Origin: Escherichia phage vB_EcoP-22664UKE3-2
Length of the DNA: 40,482 bases
Reading direction: 5' to 3' (one strand)
Sequence record: MZ234011.1
Shown here: piece after piece, positions 1 through 40,482 of the stretch
Layout of the letters: every line of letters begins with the position of its first letter
Numbering within the stretch: the stretch's first letter is position 1
Notes under the pieces: model-generated
Seen by the model: only the letters and a program-made list of their open reading frames with translations
Told to the model about the DNA's origin: nothing
Database searches by the model: none
Made by a program: the position numbers and the translations under genes

Positions 1-3000
1 ATGCAGGAACGAGAGGAGCGCTCTACGTGGTTCGGTTTCGGTGCGGCTACAGAAGCTGAAGTGAAGAACTCTATGGTCGGCGTGGCTATCCGCGCTGGTC
101 AGACCGAGGACTCACTTGATGTCATTGGCGATGTGTTCAACCCGACCCGCTGGAACAACCATAAGTGGTCTCGTGAGGAGCTAGACCAGATTCGTAACGC
201 TGGGGTTTTGCCTCAGTATTACGGAGTCATTACTGGTGGCTCTCCTCAGAACCTGACCGAGCTTATTAACTTGGCGCTTGAGAACCAGAAGTTGGACCAA
301 GAGAAGGCCAAGGCTGGGACTGGTGCTCAACTGGCGGCTGGTGTGATTGGTGCTGGCGTGGACCCTCTGACCTACGTTCCTATTGCTGGGCAGGTAGGTA
401 AAGGTGGTAAGCTAGTCAACAAGATGTTCACTGTGGCTGCTCAGTCTGGTGCTCTGGCTGGGGCATCCGAGATTGCTCGAACCTCAGTTGCTGGTGGGGA
501 CGCTCATGTTGCTGAAGCTATCCTTGGTGGCGCTCTCTTCGGTGGTGGCATGACTGCTATCGCTGATGGACTAGGCAGAGCCTTAGGTCGCAACACTAAT
601 GAGTTTGCTGGTCCAGCTACACGTTTGGAAGCTCGTGAGACAGCTCGTAACGTTGATGGTCAGGACCTGTCCCGTCTCCCTATTCAGGAAGGTGAGCAGA
701 CCTTTAGTCATCAAGGCGTTAAGTTCGCTGACGTTCCGAATGAGCCGGGAAGTGTACGATTAGAAGACGGTTCAATCCTGATTGGTGAGAACCCTCTGAA
801 CCCTAAGACACGTCAAGTCTTTGACGAAGTGATTGAGCCGGAACGTGCCGCTGCTGGTGTGAACCTTGGTGGACTTACCGAGATTGGCCTGAAGCTGCTT
901 CGGTCTGAGAACCCTGAGATTCGTGGAGTAGCTGCTGACTTAGTGCGTTCACCTACTGGTATGCAGTCTGGGGCCTCAGGTAAAATCGGGACAACTGCGT
1001 CAGACGTGTTCGAGAGACTTCGTTCTGTGGACCATCGGTTCTACAACGACATCGACGATGCGGTTACTGAGGCACTAAAGGACCCGTACTTCCAGACTGC
1101 ATTCTGGCGAGACTCTGGCGCATTCCGTCAGGACATCTACCAGCGTGTGTCTATGGCTATCGAAGATGGTAGCGGAAACCTGAAGGCTGAACTGACTCCG
1201 GGAGAACTGAAAGTCTATGACCTACTGAAGAACCAGTTCGACGCCAAGCGTGAGATGATGGAGAACCCAGCGATGTTTGGTCGTCCAGACGCTCAGTCTA
1301 TCTTTCCGGGTAGCCGCTTCAAGGGAACCTACGTCCCTCATGTGTATAGCAAACAGATGAAGGAGCTGTACATCAAGGAGCTTGGGAGTCCAGAGGCGTT
1401 GCAGGAGGCCATCAAGAAGTCATGGTTGACCAGCTATGCGTCTCGACCTGAAGTCAAGAAACGCGTGGACGAGGCACTTTTAGAGGCTGACCCTACGTTG
1501 ACTCCAGAAGGACTTGCGGCTGCGGTCGATAAGTACGCCAACGATAAGGCTTATGGTATCTCTCACACCGAGCAGTTCGAGCGTTCATCCGTAATGGAGG
1601 AGAACATCAACGGGCTGGTGGGTCTGGAGAACAACAGCTTCCTTGAGGCTCGTAACCTGTTCGATAGCGATATGTCAATCGTTCTTCCTAACGGTCAGAC
1701 CTTCAGTGTCAACAACCTGCGTGAGTGGGACATGGACAAGATTGTCCCGGCCTACAACCGTCGAGTTAATGGTGATATTGCTATCATGGCTGGTACAGGC
1801 AAGACCACGAAGGAAATGAAGGACTTAGTTGAGACCATGATGAACAAGGCTGGCGATGACGGAAAGTTGAAAGGTGAAGTATCTACCTTACGTGACACCC
1901 TGAAGATTCTCACTGGTCGTGCTCGACGTGATGGTGCTGATGATGCGGCCTTCGCTACCGTGATGCGCATGATGACAGACCTATCGTTCTTCGCTAAGAA
2001 TGCCTACATGGGTGTTCAGAACTTAACGGAGATTGGTGGTATGCTGGCTCGTGGTAACGTTCGTGCACTGCTACACGGAGTACCGATGTTCCGTGACCTA
2101 GCCTTCCGTAACAAGAAGGTCGGGGCCTCGGAGATTAAGGACCTGCATAATGTTATCTTCGGTAAAGAATTAGACGACTCAATCCGTCCGTCTAAACAGG
2201 ATGTTATCGACCGTCTGCGATCTTACAGTGACCTTAGTCGTGGTACAGCTACAGCTCTGGGGACTGCTAAGTATTACACTGGTGAACTTGTAGTACGCTC
2301 TCCGTTCACTAAAGTCCTCAACGGTACGACCAACTACCTGTTAGATGCTGGACGTCAAGGCTTCCTGTCTGACATAGTGGAGCATAGCCTGACTGGTAGT
2401 AAGCGTAAGTTCGATGACCGCTGGCTGAAGACCGCTGGTATATCTGACGAGCAGTGGAGTGGAATTAAGTCCCTAATCCGTGAGTCAGTGACTCGTGGGC
2501 CAGACGGGAAGTACACCATCAAGGATAAGAAGGCGTTCAGTCAGGACCCAAGGGCTATGGACCTGTGGCGTATGGGTGACACCATCGCTGACGAGACGTT
2601 ACTCCGGCCTCATAAGCTGTCAAACATGGACGCCAAGGCTTATGGTCCTCTCGCTAAGACTGTCCTTCAGTTTAAGAACTTCGTCATCAAGTCTATCAAT
2701 GGGAGAACCATGCGAACCTTCTATAACGCCACGAAGAACAACAGAGCGATTGACGCTGCACTGTCGACCGTGATGTCTATGGGTCTGGCTGGTATCTACT
2801 ACATGGCTCAGGCGCATGTCAAGGCTTATGCTATGCAGGATGGTCGAGACCGTGACTACCTTAAGCAAGCTCTGGACCCAACGATGATTGGCTATGCGGC
2901 CCTGTCCCGTAGTTCACATCTTGGTGGCCCACTTGGGGTAGCTAACATTCTGGGAGGCATCGCTGGATATGAGGACACTAAGATGCTCCGTTCGTCTATC

Positions 3001-3303
3001 CTACCTCGTTCTCCTACAGAGAAGCCTGAGCGTGCCATCGCGTATGGTGCAGCTACAAGTGACCCTGTGATGAATGTTGTTGGTAACTTCTTGGAGCAGG
3101 TTCCAGCTTTCGGATATGCTGCTAACGTTGGCGCTTCGGCTTACAACTTGGCTGGCTACCTCAAGGCTGATACTCGTGTCAACGAGCGTGACTACATGAC
3201 CGGGATGTATAATACGTTCCGTGAACTGGTTCCGAACGACCCCATTACCCAGAAGCTGCTGCTTGGAACGTTTGAGGAGCAAGGCATCCACATCAAGGAC
3301 TAA
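1..3303 (+). CDS. Internal virion protein D (T7 gp16), C-terminal 1100 aa; 5' part of the gene is at 39898..40482 (frame continuous across the window junction)
   Basis: Translation from base 1 (STWFGFGAATEAEV...TPTRWNNHKWSREELDQIR) aligns with an internal region of T7 gp16 as I recall it; combined length about 1295 aa matches gp16; position after gp15 and before the tail fibre. Confidence 0.9.
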   Translation: MQEREERSTWFGFGAATEAEVKNSMVGVAIRAGQTEDSLDVIGDVFNPTRWNNHKWSREELDQIRNAGVLPQYYGVITGGSPQNLTELINLALENQKLDQEKAKAGTGAQLAAGVIGAGVDPLTYVPIAGQVGKGGKLVNKMFTVAAQSGALAGASEIARTSVAGGDAHVAEAILGGALFGGGMTAIADGLGRALGRNTNEFAGPATRLEARETARNVDGQDLSRLPIQEGEQTFSHQGVKFADVPNEPGSVRLEDGSILIGENPLNPKTRQVFDEVIEPERAAAGVNLGGLTEIGLKLLRSENPEIRGVAADLVRSPTGMQSGASGKIGTTASDVFERLRSVDHRFYNDIDDAVTEALKDPYFQTAFWRDSGAFRQDIYQRVSMAIEDGSGNLKAELTPGELKVYDLLKNQFDAKREMMENPAMFGRPDAQSIFPGSRFKGTYVPHVYSKQMKELYIKELGSPEALQEAIKKSWLTSYASRPEVKKRVDEALLEADPTLTPEGLAAAVDKYANDKAYGISHTEQFERSSVMEENINGLVGLENNSFLEARNLFDSDMSIVLPNGQTFSVNNLREWDMDKIVPAYNRRVNGDIAIMAGTGKTTKEMKDLVETMMNKAGDDGKLKGEVSTLRDTLKILTGRARRDGADDAAFATVMRMMTDLSFFAKNAYMGVQNLTEIGGMLARGNVRALLHGVPMFRDLAFRNKKVGASEIKDLHNVIFGKELDDSIRPSKQDVIDRLRSYSDLSRGTATALGTAKYYTGELVVRSPFTKVLNGTTNYLLDAGRQGFLSDIVEHSLTGSKRKFDDRWLKTAGISDEQWSGIKSLIRESVTRGPDGKYTIKDKKAFSQDPRAMDLWRMGDTIADETLLRPHKLSNMDAKAYGPLAKTVLQFKNFVIKSINGRTMRTFYNATKNNRAIDAALSTVMSMGLAGIYYMAQAHVKAYAMQDGRDRDYLKQALDPTMIGYAALSRSSHLGGPLGVANILGGIAGYEDTKMLRSSILPRSPTEKPERAIAYGAATSDPVMNVVGNFLEQVPAFGYAANVGASAYNLAGYLKADTRVNERDYMTGMYNTFRELVPNDPITQKLLLGTFEEQGIHIKD

Positions 3304-3321
3304 ACTATCACTATAGGAAAC
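3299..3321 (+). promoter_or_regulatory. Phage RNAP promoter upstream of tail fibre gene (TAAACTATCACTATAGGAAA), predicted +1 near 3316
   Basis: Matches the window's recurrent 20-bp T7-type promoter core; overlaps the gp16 stop codon. Confidence 0.6.
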
Positions 3322-3367
3322 TGGAGGCGCTACCATAGGTCTCCATTTAAATCACAAAGGAGGCATA

Positions 3368-5899
3368 ATGTCCACGATTACACAATTCCCTTCAGGAAAC
3401 ACTCAGTACAGGATTGAGTTCGACTACCTAGCCAGAACGTTTGTTGTTGTTACGCTGGTGAATAGCTCTAACCCTACCCTGAACCGTGTACTGGAAGTTG
3501 GTCGAGATTACCGATTCCTTAATCCAACGATGATTGAGATGTTGGTTGACCAATCAGGTTTCGACATAGTTCGTATTCACCGTCAGACTGGAACTGACTT
3601 AGTGGTAGATTTCAGGAATGGCTCAGTGTTGACAGCTAGTGACCTGACCAATTCAGAGCTTCAGGCTATCCATATTGCAGAAGAAGGTCGAGACCAAACG
3701 GTTGACTTAGCGAAGGAATATGCCGATGCTGCTGGTAGCTCTGCTGGCAACGCTAAGGATAGCGAGGACGAAGCACGCCGAATCGCTGCGAGTATCAGGG
3801 AAGCTGGTCTAATTGGCTATATTACCCGTCGCTCCTTCGAGAAAGGCTACAACGTTACAACATGGAGCGAGGTCCTGCTATGGGAAGAGGATGGTGATTA
3901 TTACCGCTGGGATGGTACGCTTCCAAAGAACGTTCCTGCTGGTTCAACTCCTGAAACTTCCGGTGGGATTGGATTAGGTGCGTGGGTTAGTGTTGGTGAT
4001 GCTGCTTTAAGAAGTCAGATTTCAAACCCGGAAGGGGCAATACTCTACCCGGAATTGCAGATGGCAAGATGGCGTGATGAGGGTGATGTTCGAGGCTGGG
4101 GTGCTAAAGGGGATGGTGTAACAGATAGTACGGAGAATATAGCTGCTTCACTAAATTCTCAAAAAGCTGTCGTAGCATCAGAAGGTGTATTCTCTAGTTC
4201 TGGTATTAATAGTAATTACTGTAACTTAGACGGTAGAGGTAGTGGCGTGCTAAGTCACCGTTCCAGTACAGGTAACTACTTAGTATTTAACAATCCACGT
4301 ACAGGTCGCTTAAGTAATATTACGGTAGAAAGTAATAAGGCGACTGATACAACTCAGGGACATCAGGTATCTCTTGCCGGTGGAAGTGATGTTACTGTAA
4401 GTGACGTTAACTTCTCAAACGTTAAAGGTACTGGTTTCAGTTTAATCGCATACCCTAATGATGCGCCACCTGATGGACTTATGATTAAAGGCATTCGAGG
4501 TAGCTATTCCGGATATGCTACTAATAAGGTAGCAGGATGCGTACTTGCTGACTCATCAGTTAACTCCCTCATAGATAACGTCATTGCTAAGAACTACCCT
4601 CAGTTCGGAGCAGTAGAGTTGAAAGGTACAGCCCGTTACAACATAGTAAGTAATGTTATAGGGGCAGATTGCCAGCATGTAACTTACAACGGCACTGAAG
4701 GGCCAATAGCTCCTTCTAATAACCTTATCAAGGGGGTGATGGCTAATAACCCTAAGTATGCAGCGGTTGTTGCAGGCAAAGGAAGTACGAACTTAATCTC
4801 AGACGTGCTCGTAGATTACTCAACTTCTGATGCTAGGCAGGCTCATGGTGTTACCGTAGAAGGGTCTGATAACGTCATAAATAATGTGCTTATGTCAGGA
4901 TGTGATGCTACTAACTCTTTAGAACAAGGGCAGACTGCTACAATTGCACGCTTTATAGGTACAGCTAATAACAACTATGCGTCTGTATTTCCTAGCTACA
5001 GTGCTACAGGTGTTATTACTTTCGAATCCGGCTCTACCCGTAACTTCGTAGAGGTAAAGCACCCTGGAAGGAGGAACGACCTTCTCAGTTCTGCTAGTAC
5101 TATTGACGGTGCAGCTACTATTGACGGCACTAATAATAGTAACGTAGTGCACGCACCCGCCTTAGGGCAGTACATAGGTAGTATGTCAGGTAGGTTCGAA
5201 TGGCGGATTAAGTCCATGTCACTCCCTTCAGGCGTTCTTACTTCTGCTGATAAGTACAGAATGCTTGGGGATGGTGCTGTGTCATTAGCTGTAGGTGGTG
5301 GTGCATCTTCTCAAGTTCGACTATTTACTTCTGATGGTACTTCTCGGGGAGTATCACTCACCAACGGTAACGTGCGTCTTCCTACCAGTAGCACAGGTTA
5401 TTTGCAGTTAGGTTCTGATGCAATGACCCCAGATAGTACTAATACATACGCATTAGGTTCCGCAAGTAGAGCATGGTCTGGCGGTTTTACTCAATCAGCC
5501 TTCACTGTTGTCTCAGATGCTAGGGATAAAACAGAGCCTCTTAATATCTCAGATGCTTTACTGGATGCTTGGTCTGAAGTTGACTTTGTGCAGTTTCAGT
5601 ACTTGGACCGAATTGAGGAGAAGGGTGCAGACTCAGCTAGATGGCACTTCGGCATCATCGCTCAGCGAGCTAAGGAGGCCTTCGAACGTCACGGTATAGA
5701 TGCACATCGCTATGGCTTCCTGTGCTTCGACAATTGGGATGATGTATACGAGGAAGATGCCAATGGCTCTCGTAAACTGATTACACCAGCAGGTTCCCGC
5801 TACGGTATTCGTTACGAGGAAGTACTGATATTAGAGGCTGCGTTGATGCGGCGTACTATTAAGCGTATGCAGGAAGCATTAGCTGTTATGTCTAAGTGA
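3368..5899 (+). CDS. Tail fibre / tailspike (gp17-like): T7-type N-terminal adaptor + pectate-lyase-like beta-helix + C-terminal intramolecular chaperone (peptidase S74-like)
   Basis: N-terminal ~150 aa (YRIEFDYLARTFVVVTL...VDFRNGSVLTASDL...IHIAEEGRD) resembles the T7 gp17 N-domain; WGAKGDGVTDSTENIAA is a pectate-lyase-superfamily motif; C-terminus has SDARDK (Ser/Lys at i, i+5) followed by a chaperone-like domain; RBS AAGGAGG upstream. Confidence 0.85.
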   Translation: MSTITQFPSGNTQYRIEFDYLARTFVVVTLVNSSNPTLNRVLEVGRDYRFLNPTMIEMLVDQSGFDIVRIHRQTGTDLVVDFRNGSVLTASDLTNSELQAIHIAEEGRDQTVDLAKEYADAAGSSAGNAKDSEDEARRIAASIREAGLIGYITRRSFEKGYNVTTWSEVLLWEEDGDYYRWDGTLPKNVPAGSTPETSGGIGLGAWVSVGDAALRSQISNPEGAILYPELQMARWRDEGDVRGWGAKGDGVTDSTENIAASLNSQKAVVASEGVFSSSGINSNYCNLDGRGSGVLSHRSSTGNYLVFNNPRTGRLSNITVESNKATDTTQGHQVSLAGGSDVTVSDVNFSNVKGTGFSLIAYPNDAPPDGLMIKGIRGSYSGYATNKVAGCVLADSSVNSLIDNVIAKNYPQFGAVELKGTARYNIVSNVIGADCQHVTYNGTEGPIAPSNNLIKGVMANNPKYAAVVAGKGSTNLISDVLVDYSTSDARQAHGVTVEGSDNVINNVLMSGCDATNSLEQGQTATIARFIGTANNNYASVFPSYSATGVITFESGSTRNFVEVKHPGRRNDLLSSASTIDGAATIDGTNNSNVVHAPALGQYIGSMSGRFEWRIKSMSLPSGVLTSADKYRMLGDGAVSLAVGGGASSQVRLFTSDGTSRGVSLTNGNVRLPTSSTGYLQLGSDAMTPDSTNTYALGSASRAWSGGFTQSAFTVVSDARDKTEPLNISDALLDAWSEVDFVQFQYLDRIEEKGADSARWHFGIIAQRAKEAFERHGIDAHRYGFLCFDNWDDVYEEDANGSRKLITPAGSRYGIRYEEVLILEAALMRRTIKRMQEALAVMSK

Positions 5900-6082
5900 G
5901 TAATACTGGAAAGAATCGAAGCCAGACTTTCTGCTCTTGAACAGAAGTAATAAACAAACCATTTTGCCATTAAGTTGGTGGGGTAGATGTTAGAAGGTTG
6001 GTGTGGTATAGACTAACTACACGCTGACCAACGTAGGTAACAACTTTGGGTCACGGACGACCCGCTTTAAACTGGAGGTTTT

Positions 6083-6277
6083 ATGATTGAGTTAGACTTC
6101 AAGAATGAGGTCCTTAAAGCCTCTCCTATCGTCGGGACCGCTGCGGCTGATGGTGCCAGTCGGTTCTTCTTCGGACTTACACTGAACGAATGGTTCTACG
6201 TTGCAGCTATCGCGTACACCGTTGTCCAGATTGGTGTGCTAGTCTACAAAACGATTAAAGGAGGTGGTAAAACATGA
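6083..6277 (+). CDS. Holin (T7 gp17.5-like, class II)
   Basis: MIELDFKNEVLKASPIVGT...FFFGLTLNEWFYVAAIAYTVVQIG closely matches T7 gp17.5 as I recall it; RBS GGAGG upstream. Confidence 0.85.
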   Translation: MIELDFKNEVLKASPIVGTAAADGASRFFFGLTLNEWFYVAAIAYTVVQIGVLVYKTIKGGGKT

Positions 6278-6537
6278 CGCAGATGGACTTAGAGAAGTTC
6301 CTCTTGATGCTGGATACAGAACGTGCTCGACTCATGCTGCAAGACTTGCGGGATGACACTAAGCGTTCACCTCAGCTCTACAACGCCATTGAGAAACTGC
6401 TTGCTCGACACAACTTTGTGTTAAGCAAGGTGTCTGTGGACGAGAAGACGCTGGCGGATATGGAGGCCTTGAACGCAGAGTATGATAAGGTGCTCTCCGC
6501 TACGGAAGATAATGACACTGGATACGGAGTACAGTAA
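6274..6537 (+). CDS. Terminase small subunit (T7 gp18-like)
   Basis: FLLMLDTERARLMLQDL...RSPQLYNAIEKLLARHNF resembles T7 gp18; start overlaps the holin stop (ATGA). Confidence 0.8.
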   Translation: MTQMDLEKFLLMLDTERARLMLQDLRDDTKRSPQLYNAIEKLLARHNFVLSKVSVDEKTLADMEALNAEYDKVLSATEDNDTGYGVQ

Positions 6538-6540
6538 GCG

Positions 6541-6586
6541 TTAGACTCAAGGTCATTACTATATGTAGTGGCCTTTATGGTTAACA
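6541..6586 (+). promoter_or_regulatory. Conserved RNA hairpin, family 2 (AGACTCAAGGTCAT...GTGGCCTTTATGGTTAAC); putative RNase III processing site before gene 18.5
   Basis: One of three copies of the same motif (also about 16553 and 23779); stem AAGGUCA/UGGCCUU requires a G-U pair so works only as RNA; position corresponds to T7 R18.5. Confidence 0.4.
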
Positions 6587-6638
6587 CTAACTAGTGGAGG
6601 AGACTCTACGTGAAATCCGATAAACCGGGAGGGCAACT

Positions 6639-7082
6639 ATGCTCGAATTTTTAAAGAGAGCGGCTCCGTGGTTACTTGCAGCAGTGATGTTTGCTGGTGG
6701 CTACCACACCGCTAACAATAAGTGGGAGGCTAAGGTAAATGCAGAATACACCTCGAATCTTAAGGCATCGGAGGATACAAGGCTTGCTGTCCAAGCTGAA
6801 GTCAACAAAGTGTCCAAACGGTTTCAGGACGAAATGTCCTCGCTGGAAGGCAGCACTGACAGGATTATTGCTGACCTTCAGTCTGACAATAAGCGGCTGC
6901 GCATCCGAGTCAAACCTACGAGTGGAACCACGCAAAGTGACGGTCGATGCGTCATTGATGGTTACGCCGAACTTGACGAACGAGATGCTAAACGTCTTAT
7001 CTCCATCGGACTGAAAGGGGACGCTTGGATTAAAGCACTACAGGATACTATCCGCAAACTTCAACAAGACAAGGAGAAATGA
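6639..7082 (+). CDS. Rz-like i-spanin (T7 gp18.5-like)
   Basis: MLEFLKRAAPWLLAAVMFAGGYH... with RIIADLQSDNKRLRIRVKPT and DERDAKRLISIGLKGDAWIKALQDTIRKLQ matching T7 gp18.5; N-terminal TM segment. Confidence 0.85.
   Translation: MLEFLKRAAPWLLAAVMFAGGYHTANNKWEAKVNAEYTSNLKASEDTRLAVQAEVNKVSKRFQDEMSSLEGSTDRIIADLQSDNKRLRIRVKPTSGTTQSDGRCVIDGYAELDERDAKRLISIGLKGDAWIKALQDTIRKLQQDKEK
6739..7014 (+). CDS. Rz1-like o-spanin lipoprotein embedded in +1 frame of Rz (T7 gp18.7-like)
   Basis: Embedded ORF with lipobox LTISGCAS and C-terminus VDASLMVTPNLTNEMLNVLS resembling T7 gp18.7; exact start uncertain. Confidence 0.7.
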   Translation: MQNTPRILRHRRIQGLLSKLKSTKCPNGFRTKCPRWKAALTGLLLTFSLTISGCASESNLRVEPRKVTVDASLMVTPNLTNEMLNVLSPSD

Positions 7083-7519
7083 TGCTCAGTGATTCGTATT
7101 TCTATGATGAGTCCAGTAAGTCTGGCCTGAAGTCCCTGCGTTCTGGTAAGGATGTGGGGTGTGTGGGAAACCACGGGTATTATCAGGTAGGAACTCGACG
7201 TCATGGACTCCTGCTGGCCCATAGAGTCGTCTGGGAGCTAACCAACGGTCCTATACCAGAAGGGATGGAGATTGACCATATCGACCGCTGCCGGACTAAC
7301 AACAGGCTGGACAACCTCCGGCTAGTTACTTCAAGCGAGAACTCCTGCAACACCTCAGGACATTCTGACTCAAAGACTGGAGTTAAGAACATATCGTTCC
7401 ATCAGAATGGCTACGCTATCGAGGTCATGCGTAAGGGGGTCCGTATGCGAACAACACGTCCTACTTTAGAGGAGGCTATCTCTGTCCGGGACCTAATGCT
7501 GGAGGGACTCTATGTCTAA
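7079..7519 (+). CDS. HNH homing endonuclease
   Basis: [56 protein letters not shown] is a typical HNH motif; sits between Rz and large terminase where T7 has no gene; overlaps terminase start. Confidence 0.75.
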
Positions 7520-9278
7520 GAAAACACCTGCTGAAAGACAGGCTGAAATGACCCAAAGGATGAGGGACGACTTCGTGTTCTTCATCTTCGTTCTCTGGAA
7601 AGCGCTGAGCCTTCCGGTTCCAACCAGATGTCAGATAGATATGTGTAAGAAGCTGGCTGCTGGCGATAACCGACGCTTCATCCTTCAGGCGTTCCGAGGT
7701 ATTGGCAAATCGTTTCTGACCTGTGGTTTCGTGGTCTGGAAGCTATGGAACAACCCAGACTTGAAGTTCATGATTGTGTCGGCCTCAAAGGAACGAGCCG
7801 ATGCAAACTCCATCTTTATCAAGCGAATCATCGACCTCATGCCTCAGCTTCAGGAACTCAAACCTAAGCAGGGACAGCGAGATGCTGTTATCAGCTTCGA
7901 CGTTGGGCCAGCCAAGCCTGACCACTCACCTTCTGTTAAGTCAGTTGGTATCACTGGTCAGTTGACTGGTAGTCGTGCTGACATACTGATTGCCGATGAC
8001 GTGGAGGTTCCGAACAACTCAGCGACTCAGGCTGCACGAGACCGTCTGTCAGAGCTTGTGAAAGAGTTTGACGCTATCCTGAAGCCGGGAGGTACGATCA
8101 TCTATCTGGGTACTCCTCAGAACGAGATGACCCTGTACCGTGAGCTGGAAGGTCGTGGGTACATCACTACTATCTGGCCCGCTCGTTATCCACGCGATAA
8201 GAAGGACTGGCAGTCTTACGGCGACCGTCTTGCACCGATGCTTCAGGCAGAGCTTGAAGAGGACCCTGAGGCCTTCTACTGGCGTCCGACCGATGAAGTT
8301 CGATTCGACGATACTGACCTGAAGGAACGTGAGCTGTCCTACGGTAAAGCTGGCTTCGCTCTACAGTTCATGCTTAACCCTAACCTGAGTGATGCCGAGA
8401 AGTATCCTCTGAAGCTCCGTGACCTTATCGTAGCAGACTTGGACCCAGCGTCCAGCCCAATGGTCTACCAATGGTTACCGAACCCTCAGAACAAGCGTGA
8501 GGACGTTCCTAACGTTGGACTCATGGGTGACTCGTACCACACGTATCAGACTGTAGGTTCTGCCTTCAGTTCGTACACCCAGAAGATTCTGGTCATAGAC
8601 CCTAGTGGTCGTGGTAAGGATGAAACTGGCTATGCGGTACTATACCAGCTCAACGGCTACATCTTCGCTATGGAAGTTGGTGGCATGCGTGGTGGTTATG
8701 AAGACTCTACGCTGGAAGCCTTGGCTAAGATTGGTCGTAAGTGGAGGGTCAACGAATACGTCATTGAGGGTAACTTCGGTGATGGTATGTACCTTGAGCT
8801 ATTCAAGCCTGTAGCGGCCCGTATCCATCCTGCGGCTGTAACTGAAGTGAAGAGTAAGGGTCAGAAAGAACTACGCATCTGTGACGTTCTGGAGCCTATC
8901 ATGGGGTCTCACAGACTTATCGTTAACGCTGCTGCTATCGTCCAAGACTACCAGACAGCCTCTGACAAGGATGGTGTTCGTAATCCTATCTACTCTCTAT
9001 TCTATCAGATGACACGTATCTCTCGTGAGCGTGGAGCCTTGGCACACGATGACCGACTTGATGCGCTGGCTATCGGTGTACAGTTCTTCGTTGAGTCGAT
9101 GGCTAAGGATGCCAACAAAGGCGAACGTGAAGTCACTGAGGAATGGCTGGAGGAACAGATGGAGAACCCACGGAAAGGCTTCGAGTCCATCCACACTGAG
9201 TTCTGGGACAATGGGGTCCGGGTAACTCACGATACGGACGACGAGCTTGGACTAGGGTCATACGTTACGTTCCACTAG
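7512..9278 (+). CDS. Terminase large subunit (T7 gp19-like)
   Basis: 588 aa, same size and position as T7 gp19; Walker A-like GIGKSF motif near the N-terminus. Confidence 0.95.
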
Positions 9279-9287
9279 CTGAATGAA

Positions 9288-9336
9288 TAACTATAGGCGA
9301 AAACTGAATTAATACGCGGTTAGTAACCTATAGTTA
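9288..9336 (+). promoter_or_regulatory. Inverted repeat TAACTATAGG ... CCTATAGTTA (10-bp arms, 29-nt spacer) downstream of terminase
   Basis: Arms are exact reverse complements; lies in the non-coding right-end region. Confidence 0.5.
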
Positions 9337-9372
9337 CTACCAGTCTAACCTACTGTTTTACAAGGAGTTTGG

Positions 9373-9395
9373 ACTTAACTATCACTATAGGGAAG
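9373..9395 (+). promoter_or_regulatory. Phage RNAP promoter (CTTAACTATCACTATAGGGAAGA), phiOR-like position after gene 19
   Basis: Full match to the promoter core; position corresponds to T7 phiOR. Confidence 0.6.
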
Positions 9396-9573
9396 ACCCC
9401 CGGTTACTTATAGTATTACTGTAGTGAATATACATATGCAGACTTTATGCAAGACCTTAGGAGGCAGACTCCGAGTTCTTACCTAAGGCTTGCACCGATG
9501 GAAGGAGGTGATATTAATCATAATCCCTCCAATACAGATAGTCACCGACCATAGATACAGGAGGTATGTAGCA

Positions 9574-9747
9574 TATGGCAAAGACCAAAGCTGTACTTAA
9601 AGCTCTGGCGACCAATCGAGCTACATACAGGTTTCTTGCTGCTGTTCTACTTGCTGCTGGCGTTACTGCTGGAAGTCAGTGGGTCGGGTGGGTCGGGTGG
9701 GTCGGGTGGGTCGAGACTCTCGTATGTACTCTGGTCTCTCAGTGTAA
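9574..9747 (+). CDS. Small Cys-rich ORF (57 aa) containing an in-frame tandem repeat (VGR x4); possible gene 19.5 analogue
   Basis: Manual translation MAKTKAVLKSSGDQSSYIQVSCCCSTCCWRYCWKSVGRVGRVGRVGRDSRMYSGLSV; RBS CAGGAGG about 10 nt upstream. May be non-coding. Confidence 0.25.
9681..9713 (+). repeat. Tandem repeat, 9-bp unit GGGTCGGGT x ~3.7
   Basis: Directly visible: gggtcgggtgggtcgggtgggtcgggtgggtcg. Confidence 0.85.
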
Positions 9748-9980
9748 TTAACGCAATCATGGTAACGATTCATGAGCGGAAGACCTAAGGTCAGTACGTG
9801 GATAAAGACTCACTCTACTGACCTTAGCTACTGTAGTCAAGGACTTTAGGTAACACCTTAAGAGAAGCTCACTTAGGGTCATCCTACTTATTGGTCTATC
9901 CTAGTGTCGCCTGACCTACGGTCCTTGACCTACAGTGGCTGTGGTCTACAGTAGTGACGATGAGTTTTGGACCAAAAGTT

Positions 9981-10180
9981 TGAGACCACATCTCACAGTT
10001 CAAGAACTTCAAGTCTCCCCCATAGGCCTCTTTCAGTCCAGACCAAAGGCCCTACCCCAGTCTATCATAAGGTTGGACCGATGGTCAAGACTTCAGGTCA
10101 ACGATAGGTTGTGGCTATGGCTTAGGGAAGGACGATAGGTTGGGACTATGGGTCTGTCTTTGAGTCTCTATCTGTATCAG
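9981..10180 (+). repeat. Putative genome left end / terminal-repeat region (approximate boundaries)
   Basis: TCTCACAGT...TCTCCCCCATAGG resembles the T7 left-terminal sequence as I recall it; lies between the phiOR-like promoter and the host-promoter cluster. Confidence 0.35.
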
Positions 10181-10193
10181 ACCTTGAGTCACT

Positions 10194-10257
10194 ACCTACA
10201 GTCTAACTACCTACAGTCATCGACCATCGGTAATGCCGCTACCTACAGTCATCGACC
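10194..10257 (+). repeat. Short direct repeats ACCTACAGTC(ATCGACC) x3, analogous to the T7 end-proximal short repeat arrays
   Basis: ACCTACAGTC at 10194, 10209 and 10241; the last two extend to the 17-mer ACCTACAGTCATCGACC. Confidence 0.6.
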
Positions 10258-10376
10258 TACGGTTAATAGACACAAGGATATAGACTTAAGGTCTAATACA
10301 TGTTAGTCAAAGACTATATCCTCTTAGTCACTATGGGGCCGACGATAGCTTAATCAATATTATTTAAGATTACCTA

Positions 10377-10412
10377 TTGACTACAGGTCCAGACTATGGC
10401 TTAATATCTTCC
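10377..10412 (+). promoter_or_regulatory. Candidate host sigma70 early promoter (A1-like): TTGACT -35 with weak -10
   Basis: TTGACT at 10377-10382; a CTTAAT/TAATAT-like -10 follows at 17-19 nt; position matches the T7 A1-A3 cluster. Confidence 0.35.
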
Positions 10413-10517
10413 GTCAACACGACACGGCAACAACCGGATAGTGAAGACGCCGGGTCATCCCGGTTAAGTAGACAGCCTGATAAGTCATACGAACAACAGG
10501 CAGATGACAGAAAGTAG

Positions 10518-10547
10518 TTGACAAGATGTACCGACTTAAAGTAGTAT
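10518..10547 (+). promoter_or_regulatory. Host sigma70 early promoter (A3-like): TTGACA - 18 nt - TAGTAT
   Basis: TTGACAAGATGTACCGACTTAAAGTAGTATGTACCACATC closely parallels T7 A3 as I recall it, including the GTACCACAT start region. Confidence 0.5.
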
Positions 10548-10660
10548 GTACCACATCAACACGAAACAACGGTGACGACCAACACTGAAACGGTCTACCT
10601 GAAGTCCTCTGACTGAAGGGAATGCTCTTTAACAATCTGGATAAACTCTTAATGTGCGCC

Positions 10661-10723
10661 GACAGTGATTAACTACAGGGTCTTTGAGTCTACATCTGAA
10701 GGCCCTGACTGATAGTCACTAAC
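10661..10723 (+). promoter_or_regulatory. Repeated hairpin element, family 1 copy A (putative RNase III site before first early gene)
   Basis: AGTGATTAACTACAGG...CCTGACTGATAGTCACTAAC; imperfect inverted repeat; nearly identical to copy D at 12156. Confidence 0.5.
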
Positions 10724-10730
10724 TTAACGG

Positions 10731-10985
10731 ATGGACACTATGAAACACTTAAGCACAATCACTAATCGCAATGAAGTATTCGTGAACACTAAAGGTTATG
10801 CGTGGATTCAGCTTAAAGAGATGAGAGGAGCGCGTCACCGTGTGGTAGTTCGCAAGGTATCAAGCAAGCCGTTCAGCAACTACAGCGTAGATACTATGCG
10901 TATAGACAACGAGACTTACCTGATAGACTCGCAGATAACCGTGCGTCCTACAGCGGGCATCTCAGCTCCTTATTTCGCTAACTGA
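10731..10985 (+). CDS. Hypothetical early protein (84 aa, basic)
   Basis: ORF with RBS-like GGATGGA upstream; first gene after the host promoters; bracketed by family-1 hairpins; no similarity I can recognise. Confidence 0.6.
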   Translation: MDTMKHLSTITNRNEVFVNTKGYAWIQLKEMRGARHRVVVRKVSSKPFSNYSVDTMRIDNETYLIDSQITVRPTAGISAPYFAN

Positions 10986-11040
10986 GAGTGATTAACTACA
11001 GGTCGTTAGACTGATAGCGGCCTGACTGATAGTCACTAGC
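10985..11040 (+). promoter_or_regulatory. Repeated hairpin element, family 1 copy B (putative RNase III site)
   Basis: Same outer arms as copy A with inner variant GTCGTTAGACTGATAGCGGCC; near-identical to copy C. Confidence 0.5.
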
Positions 11041-11058
11041 AACCTAAGAGGATTCATT

Positions 11059-11337
11059 ATGAGACTGAACAAAGCTACAGCAGAAGCCTTTCGCAAGGAG
11101 CTTGAATCAAGATTATTGTGTGGAGTGGCGGAAGGAGCCGCTCGATATAAAGAGAATGGTCTAACGTTCAAGCGCTTTATGTGGGATTGCTATCACGGAG
11201 TGGGCCATAAAAAGTCGCAGGAAATAATCACCAGCAACAATGCGGAAGTGCAAGTGATAGGAGGATACATGGCTAACGTGAAGGATTCACACATAGAGAC
11301 AATGCTTAAGAATGCACTTAAAGATGTAGCCTACTAG
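11059..11337 (+). CDS. Hypothetical early protein (92 aa)
   Basis: ORF with RBS AAGAGGA upstream; between hairpin copies B and C; no recognisable similarity. Confidence 0.6.
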   Translation: MRLNKATAEAFRKELESRLLCGVAEGAARYKENGLTFKRFMWDCYHGVGHKKSQEIITSNNAEVQVIGGYMANVKDSHIETMLKNALKDVAY

Positions 11338-11388
11338 TGATTAACTACAGGTCGTTAGACTGATAGCGGCCTGACTGATAGTCACTAA
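11333..11388 (+). promoter_or_regulatory. Repeated hairpin element, family 1 copy C (putative RNase III site before ocr)
   Basis: Near-identical to copy B. Confidence 0.5.
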
Positions 11389-11417
11389 CACATAATTAAC
11401 TTTGAGAGGATATAACT

Positions 11418-11924
11418 ATGGAACGTAATGCTAACGCATACTATGAGCTGCTGGCTGCAACCGTTGAGGCATTTATCGAGCGTATTCAGTACGACCACCT
11501 GACTCAAGATGATGACTACAGCGATGCGCTGCATGAGGTCGTAGACGGTCAGGTTCCACACTATTACCACGAGATTTTTACGGTGATGGCTGCTGATGGT
11601 ATAGACCACGAGTTCGAAGACTCTGGGCTGATGCCTGAAACCAAGGACGTAACGCGTATCCTACAAGCTCGCATCTATGAGGCGCTTTATAACGATGTGT
11701 CTAATAGCTTGGATGTAGTCTGGTTTGAGGATGAAGAGGCAGAAGAAGAGGATGAATATTGGGTAGTTGACGCTAAAACAGGCGCAATAATTGTGCAAGC
11801 TGTAGCTCTTGAGGTCGCTACTGCATGTACCAAGGTTAACTATGCGGCAGGTCGCCACCTGAAGGTGGAAGACATCAATGATAACGTAGTGTTCGACCCT
11901 GCGGCTGAGGACTGCGAGCGATGA
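11418..11924 (+). CDS. ocr: Ocr-like anti-restriction DNA-mimic protein (T7 gp0.3 homologue), 168 aa with C-terminal extension
   Basis: [43 protein letters not shown] matches T7 Ocr ([43 protein letters not shown]) as I recall it; highly acidic. Confidence 0.85.
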
Positions 11925-12155: not shown

Positions 12156-12220
12156 GCGACAGTGATTAACTACAGGGTCTTTGAGTCTACATCTGAAGGC
12201 CCTGACTGATAGCCACTAAC
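12156..12220 (+). promoter_or_regulatory. Repeated hairpin element, family 1 copy D (putative RNase III site)
   Basis: One mismatch relative to copy A over about 60 bp. Confidence 0.5.
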
Positions 12221-12464: not shown

Positions 12465-12596
12465 CCTAGATAAACAGGAGAGAACCAAATCGTAGCTTGA
12501 CCATAACGCTGACAGGTGGATACTGAGTGATAGACGAGAGGCCGTCGAATGATAGGTGGCCTCAAAGATTATCACTTGAATTAATAGGAGTTAACT

Positions 12597-16532: not shown

Positions 16533-16555
16533 CCTAAACTATCACTATAGGCTTA
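16533..16555 (+). promoter_or_regulatory. Phage RNAP promoter (CCTAAACTATCACTATAGGCTTA), phi1.1-like
   Basis: Full promoter core upstream of gene 1.1. Confidence 0.6.
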
Positions 16556-16598
16556 GACTCAAGGTCATGACTCAAAGTCGTGGCCTTCATGATTAACC
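16553..16598 (+). promoter_or_regulatory. Conserved RNA hairpin, family 2; putative RNase III site (R1.1-like)
   Basis: AGACTCAAGGTCAT...GTGGCCTTCATGATTAAC; same motif as at 6541 and 23779. Confidence 0.4.
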
Positions 16599-16628
16599 CT
16601 AAATAAACACTACTGGAGATTTAACCGT

Positions 16629-21530: not shown

Positions 21531-21743
21531 ATGATTAAACTTATTGAATTTCTGGGTCGTCTGGTTGTGCGTGGCTATTCTCGTGCTGCGAGTGTGGAAC
21601 GAAAAGTCGCATCTGCTGCGGCTAAAGGTGCGGAAGCGGCTGCTGCGGAAGCGGATAGTCTGCGCATCAAGTCTCTGGACGCTGGCCTACGTGCCAAAGG
21701 TCTTGACAAGAAAGCCGAGCAACTGAAAGGCTTCTTCAGCTAA
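21531..21743 (+). CDS. Hypothetical protein (70 aa), Ala/Lys-rich
   Basis: ORF with RBS AAGGAGA upstream. Confidence 0.5.
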   Translation: MIKLIEFLGRLVVRGYSRAASVERKVASAAAKGAEAAAAEADSLRIKSLDAGLRAKGLDKKAEQLKGFFS

Positions 21744-21761
21744 ACTATCACCTTAGGGATG
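21739..21761 (+). promoter_or_regulatory. Degenerate promoter-like sequence (CTAAACTATCACCTTAGGGATG)
   Basis: Upstream half matches the promoter core but -4/-3 are changed (CACCTTAGGG vs CACTATAGGG); activity doubtful. Confidence 0.3.
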
Positions 21762-21806
21762 AGACCACGGGTCTTGTCCCTTTGTTCGCATTTGAGATTA
21801 AGAAAT

Positions 21807-21885
21807 GTCTCCATAGCTCAAACGGTAGAGCGGCGGGTCGTGATGGCCTATTGCGATTAGGGTTCGAATCCCCGTGGAGACGCCA
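21807..21885 (+). tRNA. tRNA-like element (degenerate; possible pseudo-tRNA or tRNA-like structure)
   Basis: Perfect 7-bp acceptor stem GTCTCCA/TGGAGAC, D-arm GCTC-AAACGGTA-GAGC, canonical T-loop TTCGAAT in GGTTCGAATCC, discriminator G then CCA; I could not fold a clean anticodon stem and the middle is about 3 nt long. Confidence 0.35.
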
Positions 21886-21896: not shown

Positions 21897-23776
<1,880 letters not shown>

Positions 23777-36051: not shown

Positions 36052-36075
36052 CTTATTGAAGGGCCTATAGATTTA

Positions 36076-36098
36076 CCTTAACTATCACTATAGGGACT
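36076..36098 (+). promoter_or_regulatory. Phage RNAP promoter (CCTTAACTATCACTATAGGGACT), phi13-like, nested inside an inverted repeat
   Basis: Full promoter core; flanked by AGGGCCTATAG (36060-36070) and CTATAGGCCCT (36097-36107). Confidence 0.6.
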
Positions 36099-36127
36099 AT
36101 AGGCCCTTAAGGTTATAAGGAGACTTT

Positions 36128-36598: not shown

Positions 36599-37170
36599 GT
36601 ATCGGCATGGGTATTATGGCTGTAGCTGGTGCCGCTATGTCCGCTTCTAGTCAGGCCAAAGCTGAGGGTGCTGCTATCGACGCTCAGAACCGTCAGGCTC
36701 AGGAGATGGTTAAGCAGATGAACTACTCTGACGCCAACCTGAAGATGCAGGAGCGAGACCTGAAGGAGCAGCAGATGGCTGAACTGACAGAGACCACGTT
36801 AAACGGTATCCGCAATCAGGGTATGGTCCGAGCTGCGGTAGCTGAGTCCGGTCTGGAAGGTAACTCTATGGACAGGATTGAACGTCAAGTCGCGGGAGAC
36901 ACAGTCAAGGAGAGAGCCGGGATTACCGAAAGCTACAACCGTGACTATGCGGCTATCTTCGGGAACCGTATCGCCAACATTGAGAACACCAAGTCTGCTA
37001 TCCGTGGTCAAGGTAAAATCATCAAGACCAGCCCACTAGCTCATGCACTTAATGTTGCTAACGCCGGGATGCAAGGGTACGCTGCTGGCAAGTCAATATC
37101 TGGGGCATCAAGCTCCGGTGGTGCCGCACCGATTAGTGCTGCTAAAGGCACACCTACAGGTCATAGCTAA
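36583..37170 (+). CDS. Internal virion protein B (T7 gp14-like)
   Basis: 195 aa; SMDRIERQVAGDTVKERAGITESYNRDYAAIFGN and C-terminal AAKGTPTG parallel T7 gp14. Confidence 0.85.
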   Translation: MCEPVSIGMGIMAVAGAAMSASSQAKAEGAAIDAQNRQAQEMVKQMNYSDANLKMQERDLKEQQMAELTETTLNGIRNQGMVRAAVAESGLEGNSMDRIERQVAGDTVKERAGITESYNRDYAAIFGNRIANIENTKSAIRGQGKIIKTSPLAHALNVANAGMQGYAAGKSISGASSSGGAAPISAAKGTPTGHS

Positions 37171-37181
37171 GAGGAGGACTA

Positions 37182-39464
37182 ATGGCTAGTAATATTGAAT
37201 CAGCTCTGGCTAATCGGACTATGGGTCGTGGCAGGGCTCCGGGTAAAACTATCGCCGTCAACTATCAAGCAGCCAGCGTTCAGGCTCCAACTGGTGACTC
37301 AGGTCTTGCTCGGGCGTTAACCAACTTCGTTGAGTCTGGTACTGGATTATACAAGCAGTTCAAAGACGAGGAGAAGACACGGGCCGACGAGCGGTCTAAC
37401 GAGATTATCCGTAAGCTGACACCTCAGCAAAGACGTGAGGCTATCCAGAACGGTACATTGCTGTATCAGGATGACCCTTACGCTATGGAAGCACTTCGAG
37501 TCAAGACGGGCCGTAACGCTGCCTTTGCGGTTGATGACGAGATTAACGTTAAGATTCAGAACGGTGAGTTCCGTACACGTCAGGACATGGAAGAGTATCG
37601 CCACCAGAGACTTCAGGACGCCGCTAAGTCCTATGCTGAAGAGGCGGGTATTAACCCTACCGACGAGTTCTTCCAGCGCGGGTTCAACGATAACATCACA
37701 GACCGAAACATCGCTATCTATGGGTCTTTCAATAAGTATTTCAGCAAGCAGTCTGAAGAGACAGCAATGTTGAACACTCGTATTGAGATGAACTCGTTCC
37801 TTAACGATGGGGACCTGATGCGTTCGCCTGAGTCTGGAAAGACCTTCATGGCCTACCTTCGGGATGGACTGACGACTGCTGCTATCCCTTCTGACCAGCG
37901 AGCACGAGAGGTAATCACCCAGACGGTCCGTGACGCAATCCAGAAGTCAGGAGGCTCAAGCTTCCTACAGCAAGTCCGTGGCGAGCGTATCACCCTTAAC
38001 GGTATTGATGCTACCATCGAAGAGATTGTAGGCCCTGACGTCTTCAATGCTGCTGTGGTTGAGGCTCAAGGTACCGAGTACAAGTTGGTGGCTAAGTATC
38101 AGGAAGACTTATCGTTAGGCGTTCAGTCTGCGATTCTTCAGGACGACCCAACCATCGGTCTGGCCCAGATTCAGAAACTCAAGGAGCAGAACAACCTGCT
38201 TCAGCCGGGGGAAGAACTCACGCCTCAGCGTCAGATGCTTATTAATGCCGAAGCCAGCTTACTGGAAGCGGTCAAGCGTAAGTCTGCTGAACAGGCGAAG
38301 GAGAACACTAAGTTAATCCAGACTCAGAACAAGCAACTGGTCATCGACCAAGTGTATCAGCGACGTCTGGCTGGGGACAACGTGTCCACCAACTATGAGG
38401 ACCTTCCGGTCTCTGAAGCTACAGGAGAGTTCAAGCGTTCAGACATGAACAACTATGCGTCTGCAAAGCTACAGCAGATTGACCAGATGGACATCCCTGA
38501 GGCTGCTAAGGACGCTCAGAAGGTGGCATTGTTAAGAGCTGACACTAACAACGGTCCGTTCCGTAATGCATTCCAGACGCTTACTCAGGACGCTGCTGGT
38601 GAGTGGCAAGCTGCGGTCATCCGTGGACAGTACGACCCAGACAAGATGCAACGCTTCGAGTCTCTTCGTCGTGCCTACACTCAGGACCCTTCAAGTTTTG
38701 CTGCTCTGTATCCTGACCAAGCTCAGTTGTTCTCTACGTTCGACCAGATGGACAAGATGGGTCTGGACCCTCAGACGATGATTGAAGCTGATAAGCAAGC
38801 TGCAAGTCAAAGCCGTGAGATGCGCATGGAGTCAGACAAGGCGTGGCAGGAGCTGAAGAACGACTCCAAGAACACCCAGTTGTCTCGCCTCCCAACGTCT
38901 CTGGACTCAAGTGCTCGTAAGGTATGGGACTCATGGTACTACCGTACAGGTAACGCTGATGCTGCAACTCAGCAGACTCAACGATGGCTGAATGAAAATA
39001 CCGTAACGTTCCAGTCTGAAGGTTCTGACGGTAAGTCCATCGGCATGGTGTCAAAGCACCAGCTTATGGTCGGGGATAACCCAGAGTCGTGGCAGGTTGG
39101 TCGAGACATTATCGACACCGCTCGTAAGCAGCTCATTAAGGCCAACCCTTGGGTAGTGAACTCTCAGTTGTCCGTTGTTGAACAGAACGGCTCTATCTTC
39201 CTCCAAGACGCTACAGGGACTATTCGTATTCGCTACGATAAAGAACTTGTAGGTAAACTCTACCGCGAACAACAGCAGAAGGCACAAGATGCCGCATACG
39301 CTCAGGCAGAACGTGACGCTAACAAGCGAGCGCGTATCGTCAGGACTAAAACTGCTGGTGACAAACGTCGAGCTGACCGAGAGGCCAACATCGAGAAGCG
39401 CGGAGGGATGTACAATGACGTCTCATTGGAGGGTATCGCAAACGTACTAATCGGTAAGGAGTAA
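37182..39464 (+). CDS. Internal virion protein C (T7 gp15-like)
   Basis: 760-aa ORF at the gp15 position and size; RBS AGAGGAGG upstream. Confidence 0.9.
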   Translation: MASNIESALANRTMGRGRAPGKTIAVNYQAASVQAPTGDSGLARALTNFVESGTGLYKQFKDEEKTRADERSNEIIRKLTPQQRREAIQNGTLLYQDDPYAMEALRVKTGRNAAFAVDDEINVKIQNGEFRTRQDMEEYRHQRLQDAAKSYAEEAGINPTDEFFQRGFNDNITDRNIAIYGSFNKYFSKQSEETAMLNTRIEMNSFLNDGDLMRSPESGKTFMAYLRDGLTTAAIPSDQRAREVITQTVRDAIQKSGGSSFLQQVRGERITLNGIDATIEEIVGPDVFNAAVVEAQGTEYKLVAKYQEDLSLGVQSAILQDDPTIGLAQIQKLKEQNNLLQPGEELTPQRQMLINAEASLLEAVKRKSAEQAKENTKLIQTQNKQLVIDQVYQRRLAGDNVSTNYEDLPVSEATGEFKRSDMNNYASAKLQQIDQMDIPEAAKDAQKVALLRADTNNGPFRNAFQTLTQDAAGEWQAAVIRGQYDPDKMQRFESLRRAYTQDPSSFAALYPDQAQLFSTFDQMDKMGLDPQTMIEADKQAASQSREMRMESDKAWQELKNDSKNTQLSRLPTSLDSSARKVWDSWYYRTGNADAATQQTQRWLNENTVTFQSEGSDGKSIGMVSKHQLMVGDNPESWQVGRDIIDTARKQLIKANPWVVNSQLSVVEQNGSIFLQDATGTIRIRYDKELVGKLYREQQQKAQDAAYAQAERDANKRARIVRTKTAGDKRRADREANIEKRGGMYNDVSLEGIANVLIGKE

Positions 39465-39466
39465 AC

Positions 39467-39916
39467 ATGAAGAACGGGACAGCCAGTGAGAGACTGGCAG
39501 AACTGTCAGTAGCTGAAGAGTCTGGCTGTATCCGATTCACAGGCCACTTAGACGGAGAAGGATACGGAAGGATAATGGTGGCTAGGGTTAAGTATATGGC
39601 ACATCGTCTCTCCTACTCCATAAATAAGGGGCCAATACCAGATGGCTATGTTGTTAGGCATAAATGTGATAATCCATCATGCATAAATCCTGAACACCTT
39701 GAAGTAGGAACGCAGGCTGACAACATTGCAGATAAGGTATCCAGAGGCCGACAGGCAAGAGGTAGTGGAGCAGGCAGAGCTATACTGACAGAGGAATCTG
39801 TTAGGGAAATACGCTCCAGTCCATTAAAAGTATCTGAGCTTTCCACCTTATACGGGGTAAGCGTCGTTTCCATACGAAATATATTGAGGAGAAAGACATG
39901 GCAACACGTGGCGTAA
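39467..39916 (+). CDS. HNH homing endonuclease inserted between gp15 and gp16
   Basis: GCIRFTGHLDGEGYGRIMVARVKYMAHRLSYSINKGPIPDGYVVRHKCDNPSCINPEHLEVGTQADN is a classical HNH motif; overlaps the gp16 start by 19 nt. Confidence 0.8.
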   Translation: MKNGTASERLAELSVAEESGCIRFTGHLDGEGYGRIMVARVKYMAHRLSYSINKGPIPDGYVVRHKCDNPSCINPEHLEVGTQADNIADKVSRGRQARGSGAGRAILTEESVREIRSSPLKVSELSTLYGVSVVSIRNILRRKTWQHVA

Positions 39917-40482
39917 GGAACGCAAATCCGGGCAATATCCGTAAGTCCAAAGACCAGTGGGAAGGTGCTATAGGCGATGATGGTGCATTCGTTATCTTCG
40001 ACAGTCCTGAATCTGGGGTCCGAGCATTAGCGAAAAACCTTCAAAGCTACGGTCGCCAAGGTTATGACTCTATCGAGAAGATTATCAACAGATGGGCACC
40101 TCCGAGCGAGAACGACACTCAGTCCTACATCGACTCGGTTGTATCTGCTACTGGTATTCCTGCAACTCAAAGTCTCGACCTATCTGACCCTGACACCCTG
40201 TCTTCTCTGGCACAAGCTATCAGCTTCCATGAGACAGGCTCACGGTACGACCCTGAAGTCTATCAGAAGGGAGTCGCACGGGCACTCAACGGCATTAGCC
40301 CAAAGACTCCACCAGTAAGCGCTAACGTATTTGACGCACTCACGGAAGGACTCAAGTCTAAACCTAAAGTAGCTCTGGGTGAGAACCTTCCGACCGCTGC
40401 TGGTCTTAACATTGAGGGTCAAGCACCTGAAGCTCCCAACGAATCGTTCGGTGAGATGTTCTATAAGTCTACTGGCGAGACC
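39898..40482 (+). CDS. Internal virion protein D (gp16), N-terminal 195 aa; continues in frame at window position 1
   Basis: ORF runs off the window end with no stop; its last residues (...FGEMFYKSTGET) and the first residues of the window (MQEREERSTWFGF...) are contiguous relative to T7 gp16 (...WETHGETLDEYNSRSTFFGF). Confidence 0.85.
   Translation, partial: MATRGVRNANPGNIRKSKDQWEGAIGDDGAFVIFDSPESGVRALAKNLQSYGRQGYDSIEKIINRWAPPSENDTQSYIDSVVSATGIPATQSLDLSDPDTLSSLAQAISFHETGSRYDPEVYQKGVARALNGISPKTPPVSANVFDALTEGLKSKPKVALGENLPTAAGLNIEGQAPEAPNESFGEMFYKSTGET

Follow-up and report, generated by a model that had tools for sequence, protein, structure and literature searches.

The GenBank record MZ234011.1 of Escherichia phage vB_EcoP-22664UKE3-2, analyzed here over its whole length of 40,482 nucleotides (nt) and called the window, very probably holds a complete Kayfunavirus genome in which the two terminal repeats have been collapsed into one and which has been opened at Met196 of gene 16, with physical ends that homology places at about 9991 and 10169. 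The break inside gene 16 is a property of the record and not of the phage, and it is a well-known kind of artifact, common in short-read phage assembly. A sequence-only reading of the window had proposed a circularized assembly opened inside gene 16 and not at the physical termini, and this proposal was borne out.

The last open reading frame (ORF) of the record starts with the ATG at 39898, has a GAGGAG Shine-Dalgarno sequence 5' of that start, and reaches base 40482 after exactly 585 nt, or 195 codons. Base 1 opens with an ATG that is codon 196 of gene 16, and the ORF from 1 to 3303 supplies 1,100 codons and the stop. When the two plus-strand parts (39898 to 40482 and 1 to 3303) were joined in silico and translated, a check that the sequence-only reading had called for, they gave 3,888 nt and one frame of 1,295 amino acids (aa) with a single, terminal stop. 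The gp16 of phage K1F (1,295 aa) aligned to the joined product with zero gaps and 1,250 of 1,295 residues identical (96.5%), and the record junction falls between T195 and M196 of that alignment. In the 1,295-aa chain 9vvp_L of the PDB, residues 1 to 195 correspond to the window tail and residues 196 to 1295 to the window head. Using T7 gp16 as a tblastn query, we obtained one high-scoring segment pair (HSP), in which residues 152 to 1315 run from window position 40270 over the junction to 3300 at 53% identity, and a PDB sequence search matched residues 220 to 1314 of the T7 gp16 structure 7eyb_I to the ORF at 1 to 3303. That ORF covers positions 214 to 1229 of the 1,235 in the phrog_342 profile, and because it enters the profile at position 214, it is truncated. 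The joined gene therefore encodes a protein of about 1,300 aa in the interval between genes 15 and 17, with a body homologous to T7 gp16, and the in-frame join of its two parts is not a chance fit. The claim that the ends are contiguous in gp16 thus stood. The further claim that they are contiguous relative to T7 gp16 held for the body from T7 residue 152 onward but not for the first ~150 residues, where the window carries a K1F-type domain.

Codons 1 to 195 (39898 to 40482) encode an endolysin-like N-terminal domain. This part matched phrog_873 "endolysin" (E = 1.9e-52), phrog_7182 "tail injection transglycosylase," and the PDB endolysin 7q47_A (E = 3.9e-13), and a Pfam search of both gp16 parts returned no family. 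Residues 1 to 151 of T7 gp16 gave no tblastn alignment to the window, and a lytic transglycosylase (SLT) domain of the T7 N-terminal type was not found in the window gp16. Judged from these matches, the N-terminal domain is probably a cell-wall hydrolase of a family different from that of T7.

The DNA across the junction gave the same result as the protein. A 2,353-nt stretch spanning it aligned as a single piece, at 100% coverage, in at least 15 phage records that are opened elsewhere, and in the best match, OZ035821.1, 2,353 query bases paired with 2,353 record bases. Because this alignment is base for base and the protein is gapless, nothing is missing or duplicated at 40482/1; the junction is seamless to the base. 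Two ends that abut seamlessly in independent homologues are the mark of a rotated, repeat-collapsed record.

Next, we looked for the physical ends. By homology, the left end of the virion DNA is predicted at window position 9991 (TCTCACAGT...). This left-end sequence is common to the window, T7, K1F, SH3, Peacock, and ECG4, its first 9 bases are invariant from T7 through the window, and four records (Peacock, ECG4, LS2, and LS3) start exactly at the base that corresponds to 9991. The direct terminal repeat, 178 to 184 bp long and present as a single copy, would occupy 9991 to 10169, as judged from K1F, SH3, Peacock, and T7. The K1F record has an exact 178-bp repeat at both ends, cited as 179 bp elsewhere (PMC4925675). 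In SH3 the repeat is exact, annotated, and 184 bp long, again at both ends of the record, and these ends were determined by sequencing with primers on the phage DNA itself (PMC4925675). The Peacock repeat, from PhageTerm, is 179 bp, and that of T7 is 160 bp. Mapped onto the window, the right boundary of the repeat lies at 10168 with the K1F record, at 10169 with Peacock and the T7-homologous position, and at 10174 with SH3. The candidate terminus that had been proposed from the letters alone, 9981 to 10180, was therefore essentially right.

The surroundings of the repeat fit this placement. Its 5' flank ends in ...GAGACCACA, which is right-end unique sequence and is likewise found in K1F, SH3, Peacock, and ECG4, and its 3' flank, TATCTGTATCAGACC..., is left-end unique sequence. 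The repeat and its flanks are thus arranged as at a concatemer junction. No second copy of the terminal repeat was found in the window, where the longest direct repeat is 64 nt. One internal copy lying between right-end and left-end unique sequence is the layout of a repeat-collapsed record, which here has all of the unique sequence but only one of the two repeat copies of the virion. When the window was rotated to 9991 and given one more repeat copy (40,660 bp), it was colinear with K1F positions 1 to 39704, in agreement with the earlier statement that the genome is complete. The colinearity is interrupted at two HNH genes, at the receptor-binding part of the tailspike, at some early ORFs, and in the polymerase region, where K1F has an HNH gene. 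The virion DNA should be about 40,660 bp long.

To define the gene content, we queried the window with 36 T7 proteins by tblastn. Matches were obtained for 31 of them, each with a single HSP, on the plus strand, and in T7 order. They include RNA polymerase, ligase, single-stranded DNA-binding protein, endonuclease I, lysozyme, primase/helicase, DNA polymerase, exonuclease, portal, scaffold, capsid, gp11 to gp17, holin, both terminase subunits, and Rz. The sequence-only reading had stated that every T7 core gene is present once. This is correct for every essential T7 gene, each of which has exactly one match, but five of the queried proteins (0.7, 1.1, 5.5, 7, and 19.5), all nonessential, had none. 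In the rotated sequence, the genes run from early through DNA metabolism and structural to packaging functions, and the minus-strand ORFs listed are all nested inside longer plus-strand ORFs. T7-like phages have promoters of their own with a conserved consensus of ~18 to 23 nt. Ten matches to the phage promoter sequence TAAMYWATCACTRTAGGR were found, all on the plus strand, against 0 expected in shuffled sequences; these sites also emerged as a repeat family (D1), and the one at 3301 to 3318 overlaps the gp16 stop codon. The nearest records are Escherichia phages of Kayfunavirus, at up to 98.8% identity. About 34.7 kb of 40.66 kb aligned with K1F at 88 to 96% identity, or roughly 79% overall as a rough sum of HSPs. 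The ICTV guideline for a genus is about 70% nucleotide similarity over the genome, and the similarity to K1F lies above it. In its unique sequence, the window is therefore a complete genome of a K1F-like Kayfunavirus (Studiervirinae, Autographiviridae).

How the record came to its present layout can be proposed from its relatives and its source. Nine sister GenBank records of the MZ2340xx series (vB_EcoP-PM129, PM131, PM137, PM139, 101120B2, 101120B1-2, 22664BS1, 101118UKE1, and 101136BS1) open and close at the very bases where the window does. With these end points common to all nine, the record was not cut at random by the assembler; it was rotated to an internal ATG, either on purpose or by inheritance. 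The virion DNA would be linear, running from 9991 to 40482, on from 1 to 9990, and then through a second copy of the ~179-bp repeat (9991 to 10169). Short-read assembly would have merged the two repeat copies into a circular path, which would then have been written out linearly from the internal ATG of gene 16 (Met196), splitting the gene. The 5' fragment of gene 16 offers in-frame start codons at codons 1 and 187 only. In Prokka, the gene caller treats contig ends as closed. If a contig had been broken just before codon 196, a coding sequence (CDS) would have been called from Met196, and the series could then have been rotated to that CDS; gene calling with closed ends followed by rotation to the first CDS is a likely cause of the Met196 start, though a conjectural one. 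The source study, Loose et al. 2021, used Nextera libraries, MiSeq, SPAdes, and Prokka, never mentions terminal repeats, and lists 22664UKE3-2 (MZ234011) in its Table 1 as a Kayfunavirus of 40,482 bp (PMC8614997). Repeat collapse and mid-genome linearization are routine in short-read assemblies of T7-like phages and have been described for przondoviruses, and Nextera libraries do not capture physical ends, which can defeat PhageTerm (PMC10438801). In the phage collection searched, the region from terminase through the repeat into the early genes is one internal stretch in at least 32 records, so the layout is common.

Three points weigh against this account. The reason given above for the choice of Met196 is conjecture, the virion ends and a double coverage over 9991 to 10169 are taken from relatives with determined ends and not from reads, and the right boundary of the repeat varies among those relatives (178, 179, and 184 bp). 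We weighed four other explanations of the record.

The first is headful packaging of a circularly permuted genome that has no fixed terminus, so that any opening point would be equally valid. With a permuted genome, too, the repeat would be seen once and the assembly path would close into a circle. However, the terminase is T7 gp19-like (64% identical), K1F carries the repeat and flanks at both record ends, at 93% identity to the window, fixed ends have been measured in the relatives SH3 and Peacock, and four records start at the predicted end base. We consider headful packaging very unlikely.

The second is that Met196 is a genuine second start and that the 1,100-aa product of the sister records is a real, separate protein. 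This would account for the ATG at position 1 and for the CDS 1..3303 annotated in the sisters. No Shine-Dalgarno sequence was found upstream of Met196, in ...CTGGCGAGACC directly before the ATG, in contrast to the GAGGAG that precedes 39898. Furthermore, the frame is open and conserved over the junction, the solved homologue is one chain of 1,295 aa, and T7 has a Leu at the equivalent position. A second start at Met196 is thus even more doubtful than headful packaging. Taken as a pair, virion ends that have moved or become permuted despite a conserved K1F-type repeat, or an internal start at Met196 giving a gp16 body that lacks the hydrolase, have a very small chance of being correct, and neither has any positive support.

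The third is that the window ends are real, either because the record is an incomplete linear contig or because the true virion termini lie inside gene 16. All that speaks for this is that the window is written linearly and that the sisters were deposited as linear "complete genome" records from the same base. In homologues with another opening point, the two ends adjoin exactly, base to base, and a conserved T7-type terminus with its repeat is located at 9991 to 10169. To our knowledge, no T7-like phage has virion DNA that stops within an essential gene and lacks a repeat at that point, which we also count against real ends, and we give this explanation next to no credence.

When SPAdes assembles a circular path, the contig often has a k-mer overlap that needs manual trimming. 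The fourth explanation, an imperfect circularization in which a few bases were lost or duplicated at 40482/1, for example by such trimming, would fit the use of SPAdes in the source study (PMC8614997), but it is effectively refuted by the equal length and gapless alignment of gp16 with K1F (1,295 aa) and by the 2,353-to-2353 junction alignment in OZ035821.1; no suffix-prefix overlap of the window ends, the trace that an assembler k-mer would leave, was found, and neither end is duplicated elsewhere in the window. The explanation that we retain is a complete, repeat-collapsed genome opened at Met196.

Because the opening lies at an internal ATG, the artifact is carried into the CDS annotation. 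We inspected the annotation of two sister records, PM131 and 101118UKE1. In PM131, gp16 is the CDS 1..3303 (1,100 aa), named "peptidoglycan lytic exotransglycosylase," and the last 589 nt are featureless; in 101118UKE1, the last 566 nt have no feature. The inspected records therefore lose the 195-aa gp16 domain that resembles cell-wall hydrolases, and the annotation cost that the sequence-only reading had foreseen is real. PM131 (MZ234045.1) also has two "hypothetical protein" CDSs, at 10036 to 10269 and 10279 to 10437, on or beside the predicted repeat and the adjoining short-repeat region. These are probably spurious calls in noncoding terminal DNA (about 9991 to 10300 of the window). For curation, gene 16 can be given as join(39898..40482,1..3303), or the record can be rotated to 9991 and a repeat of ~179 bp added at its right end. 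Comparisons of gp16 domains, genome length, terminal repeats, or synteny are misled by such records. Nothing in this changes the biology of the phage; what it offers is a correction for curators of this record and the nine sister records.

The genes that frame gene 16 and the physical ends were placed as follows, all on the plus strand. Gene 15 (37182 to 39464), for an internal virion protein, lies upstream of gene 16 and was identified by T7 tblastn and sister annotation, and the gene 17 tailspike (3368 to 5899), identified by Pfam and PHROGs, lies downstream. Gene 19 (7512 to 9278), the terminase large subunit, assigned by the T7 gp19 match at 64% identity and by sister annotation, would have no other large gene between it and the physical right end. 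The predicted unique right end (9279 to 9990) has a promoter in the phiOR position (9375 to 9392) and a small ORF in the gene 19.5 position (9576 to 9752). Small early ORFs and recurring hairpins lie in the predicted unique left end and early region (10170 to 11417). Gene 0.3 (ocr; 11418 to 11924; Pfam PF08684, E = 3.5e-30, with a T7 match) is the first conserved early gene past it, and gene 1 (13304 to 15985) encodes the single-subunit, T7-type RNA polymerase (T7 gp1 residues 1 to 883, 63% identity by tblastn).

Several repeats lie in the regions around the predicted ends. Short reiterated motifs, CTACCTACAGTC and GACCTACAGT (family D6), are found on both sides of the terminal repeat, at 10195 to 10265 and 9915 to 9965, and they recall the short repeat arrays that flank the T7 terminal repeat. 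A perfect 9-nt tandem repeat, GTGGGTCGG (3.9 copies, 9679 to 9713, plus strand), lies in frame in the ORF at 9576 to 9752; the terminal repeat follows after ~280 nt. The 9-nt unit is present twice in PM131, Peacock, ECG4, and SH3 against ~4 times in the window, an 18-nt (6-aa) expansion. In the early region there is a sigma-70-like promoter at 10518 to 10547 (TTGACA-18-TAGTAT). A sigma-70 scan of 9279 to 11420 gave 7 sites against 3.6 expected, with this one strong, which is weak evidence taken alone. Repeated intergenic elements of 53 to 64 nt (families D3 to D5) lie between early genes and near genes 18.5 and 1.1, at 10660 to 10723, 10987 to 11041, 11336 to 11390, 12157 to 12220, 12526 to 12580, 6541 to 6593, and 16553 to 16605. 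The six that were folded (all but 12526 to 12580) form stable hairpins (z from -2.5 to -6), several with an internal loop, and we presume a resemblance to the RNase III processing sites of T7.

The window has two HNH homing endonuclease genes, both on the plus strand, that K1F lacks at the corresponding positions. The first (39467 to 39916; Pfam HNH_3, E = 1.2e-13; phrog_6254) separates genes 15 and 16, and 19 nt at its 3' end overlap the start of gene 16; it is missing from PM131 and found in 101118UKE1, CR44b, and others. The second (7079 to 7519; Pfam HNH_3, E = 1.8e-21) separates genes 18.5 and 19.

A tRNA-like element upstream of gene 4 (21807 to 21885, plus strand) scored 36.7 bits with the Rfam tRNA model against a gathering threshold of 29 and was called tRNA-Thr(cgt) by ARAGORN. 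It sits between a phage promoter-like site (21739 to 21766) and the gene 4 start at 21900. Its 7-bp acceptor stem is perfect, its D arm and T loop are canonical, and CCA is encoded; its anticodon region is abnormal and overlong, and its whole-molecule fold energy is unexceptional (z = -1.2). Relative to K1F, it is an insert of ~89 nt with TAAGAA on one side and TAAGGA on the other, and it occurs in about 34 of 179 matching records. The version in phage pO91 differs in one acceptor-stem pair, with both sides changed (U-A to C-G), and in the "anticodon," where CGTG reads CTTT. A few records annotate the element as tRNA-Thr or tRNA-OTHER, and it is unannotated in two listed sisters. The insert had no match in complete E. 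coli genomes, and we found no literature pairing Kayfunavirus with tRNA-Thr. Because tRNAs are unusual in T7-like coliphages, the insert may not be a working tRNA, and it may instead be a processing signal or a small mobile element.

The tailspike (3368 to 5899) has the N-terminal adaptor of the T7 tail fiber, a TSP1/Gp66 N-domain, a weakly pectate-lyase-like middle, and a C-terminal Peptidase_S74 chaperone domain. Because its receptor-binding part gave no alignment to the K1F endosialidase, its predicted target is likely a surface polysaccharide other than that of K1F.

Among the closest known systems is K1F (NC_007456), the type member of Kayfunavirus. The two genomes share gene order and end-to-end colinearity, with about 35 of 40.7 kb aligned at 88 to 96%, and their terminal repeats are 93% identical, with the same flanks. 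However, the K1F record begins at the physical left end and has a copy of the repeat at either end, whereas the window is rotated and has one copy. The window further differs in its extra HNH genes (7079 to 7519 and 39467 to 39916), its extra early ORFs, and its tRNA-like insert, and it lacks the HNH gene that interrupts the K1F DNA polymerase gene. The K1F tailspike is an endosialidase, and the receptor-binding part of the window tailspike is different. The MZ2340xx sisters are 95 to 99% identical to the window, have the same Met196 opening, and each carry the terminal repeat region internally; they differ from it in length and in some inserts. T7 (NC_001604) shares the essential genes, each once and in the same order, the TCTCACAGT left end, and a homologous right boundary of the repeat. 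Unlike the window, it has a 160-bp repeat, the first ~150 residues of its gp16 have no counterpart in the K1F-type N-terminal domain of the window, and its genes 0.7, 1.1, 5.5, 7, and 19.5 are without a match. Finally, in comparison with the collapsed assemblies described for przondoviruses (PMC10438801), the opening here is common to a whole deposited series and lies at an internal ATG.

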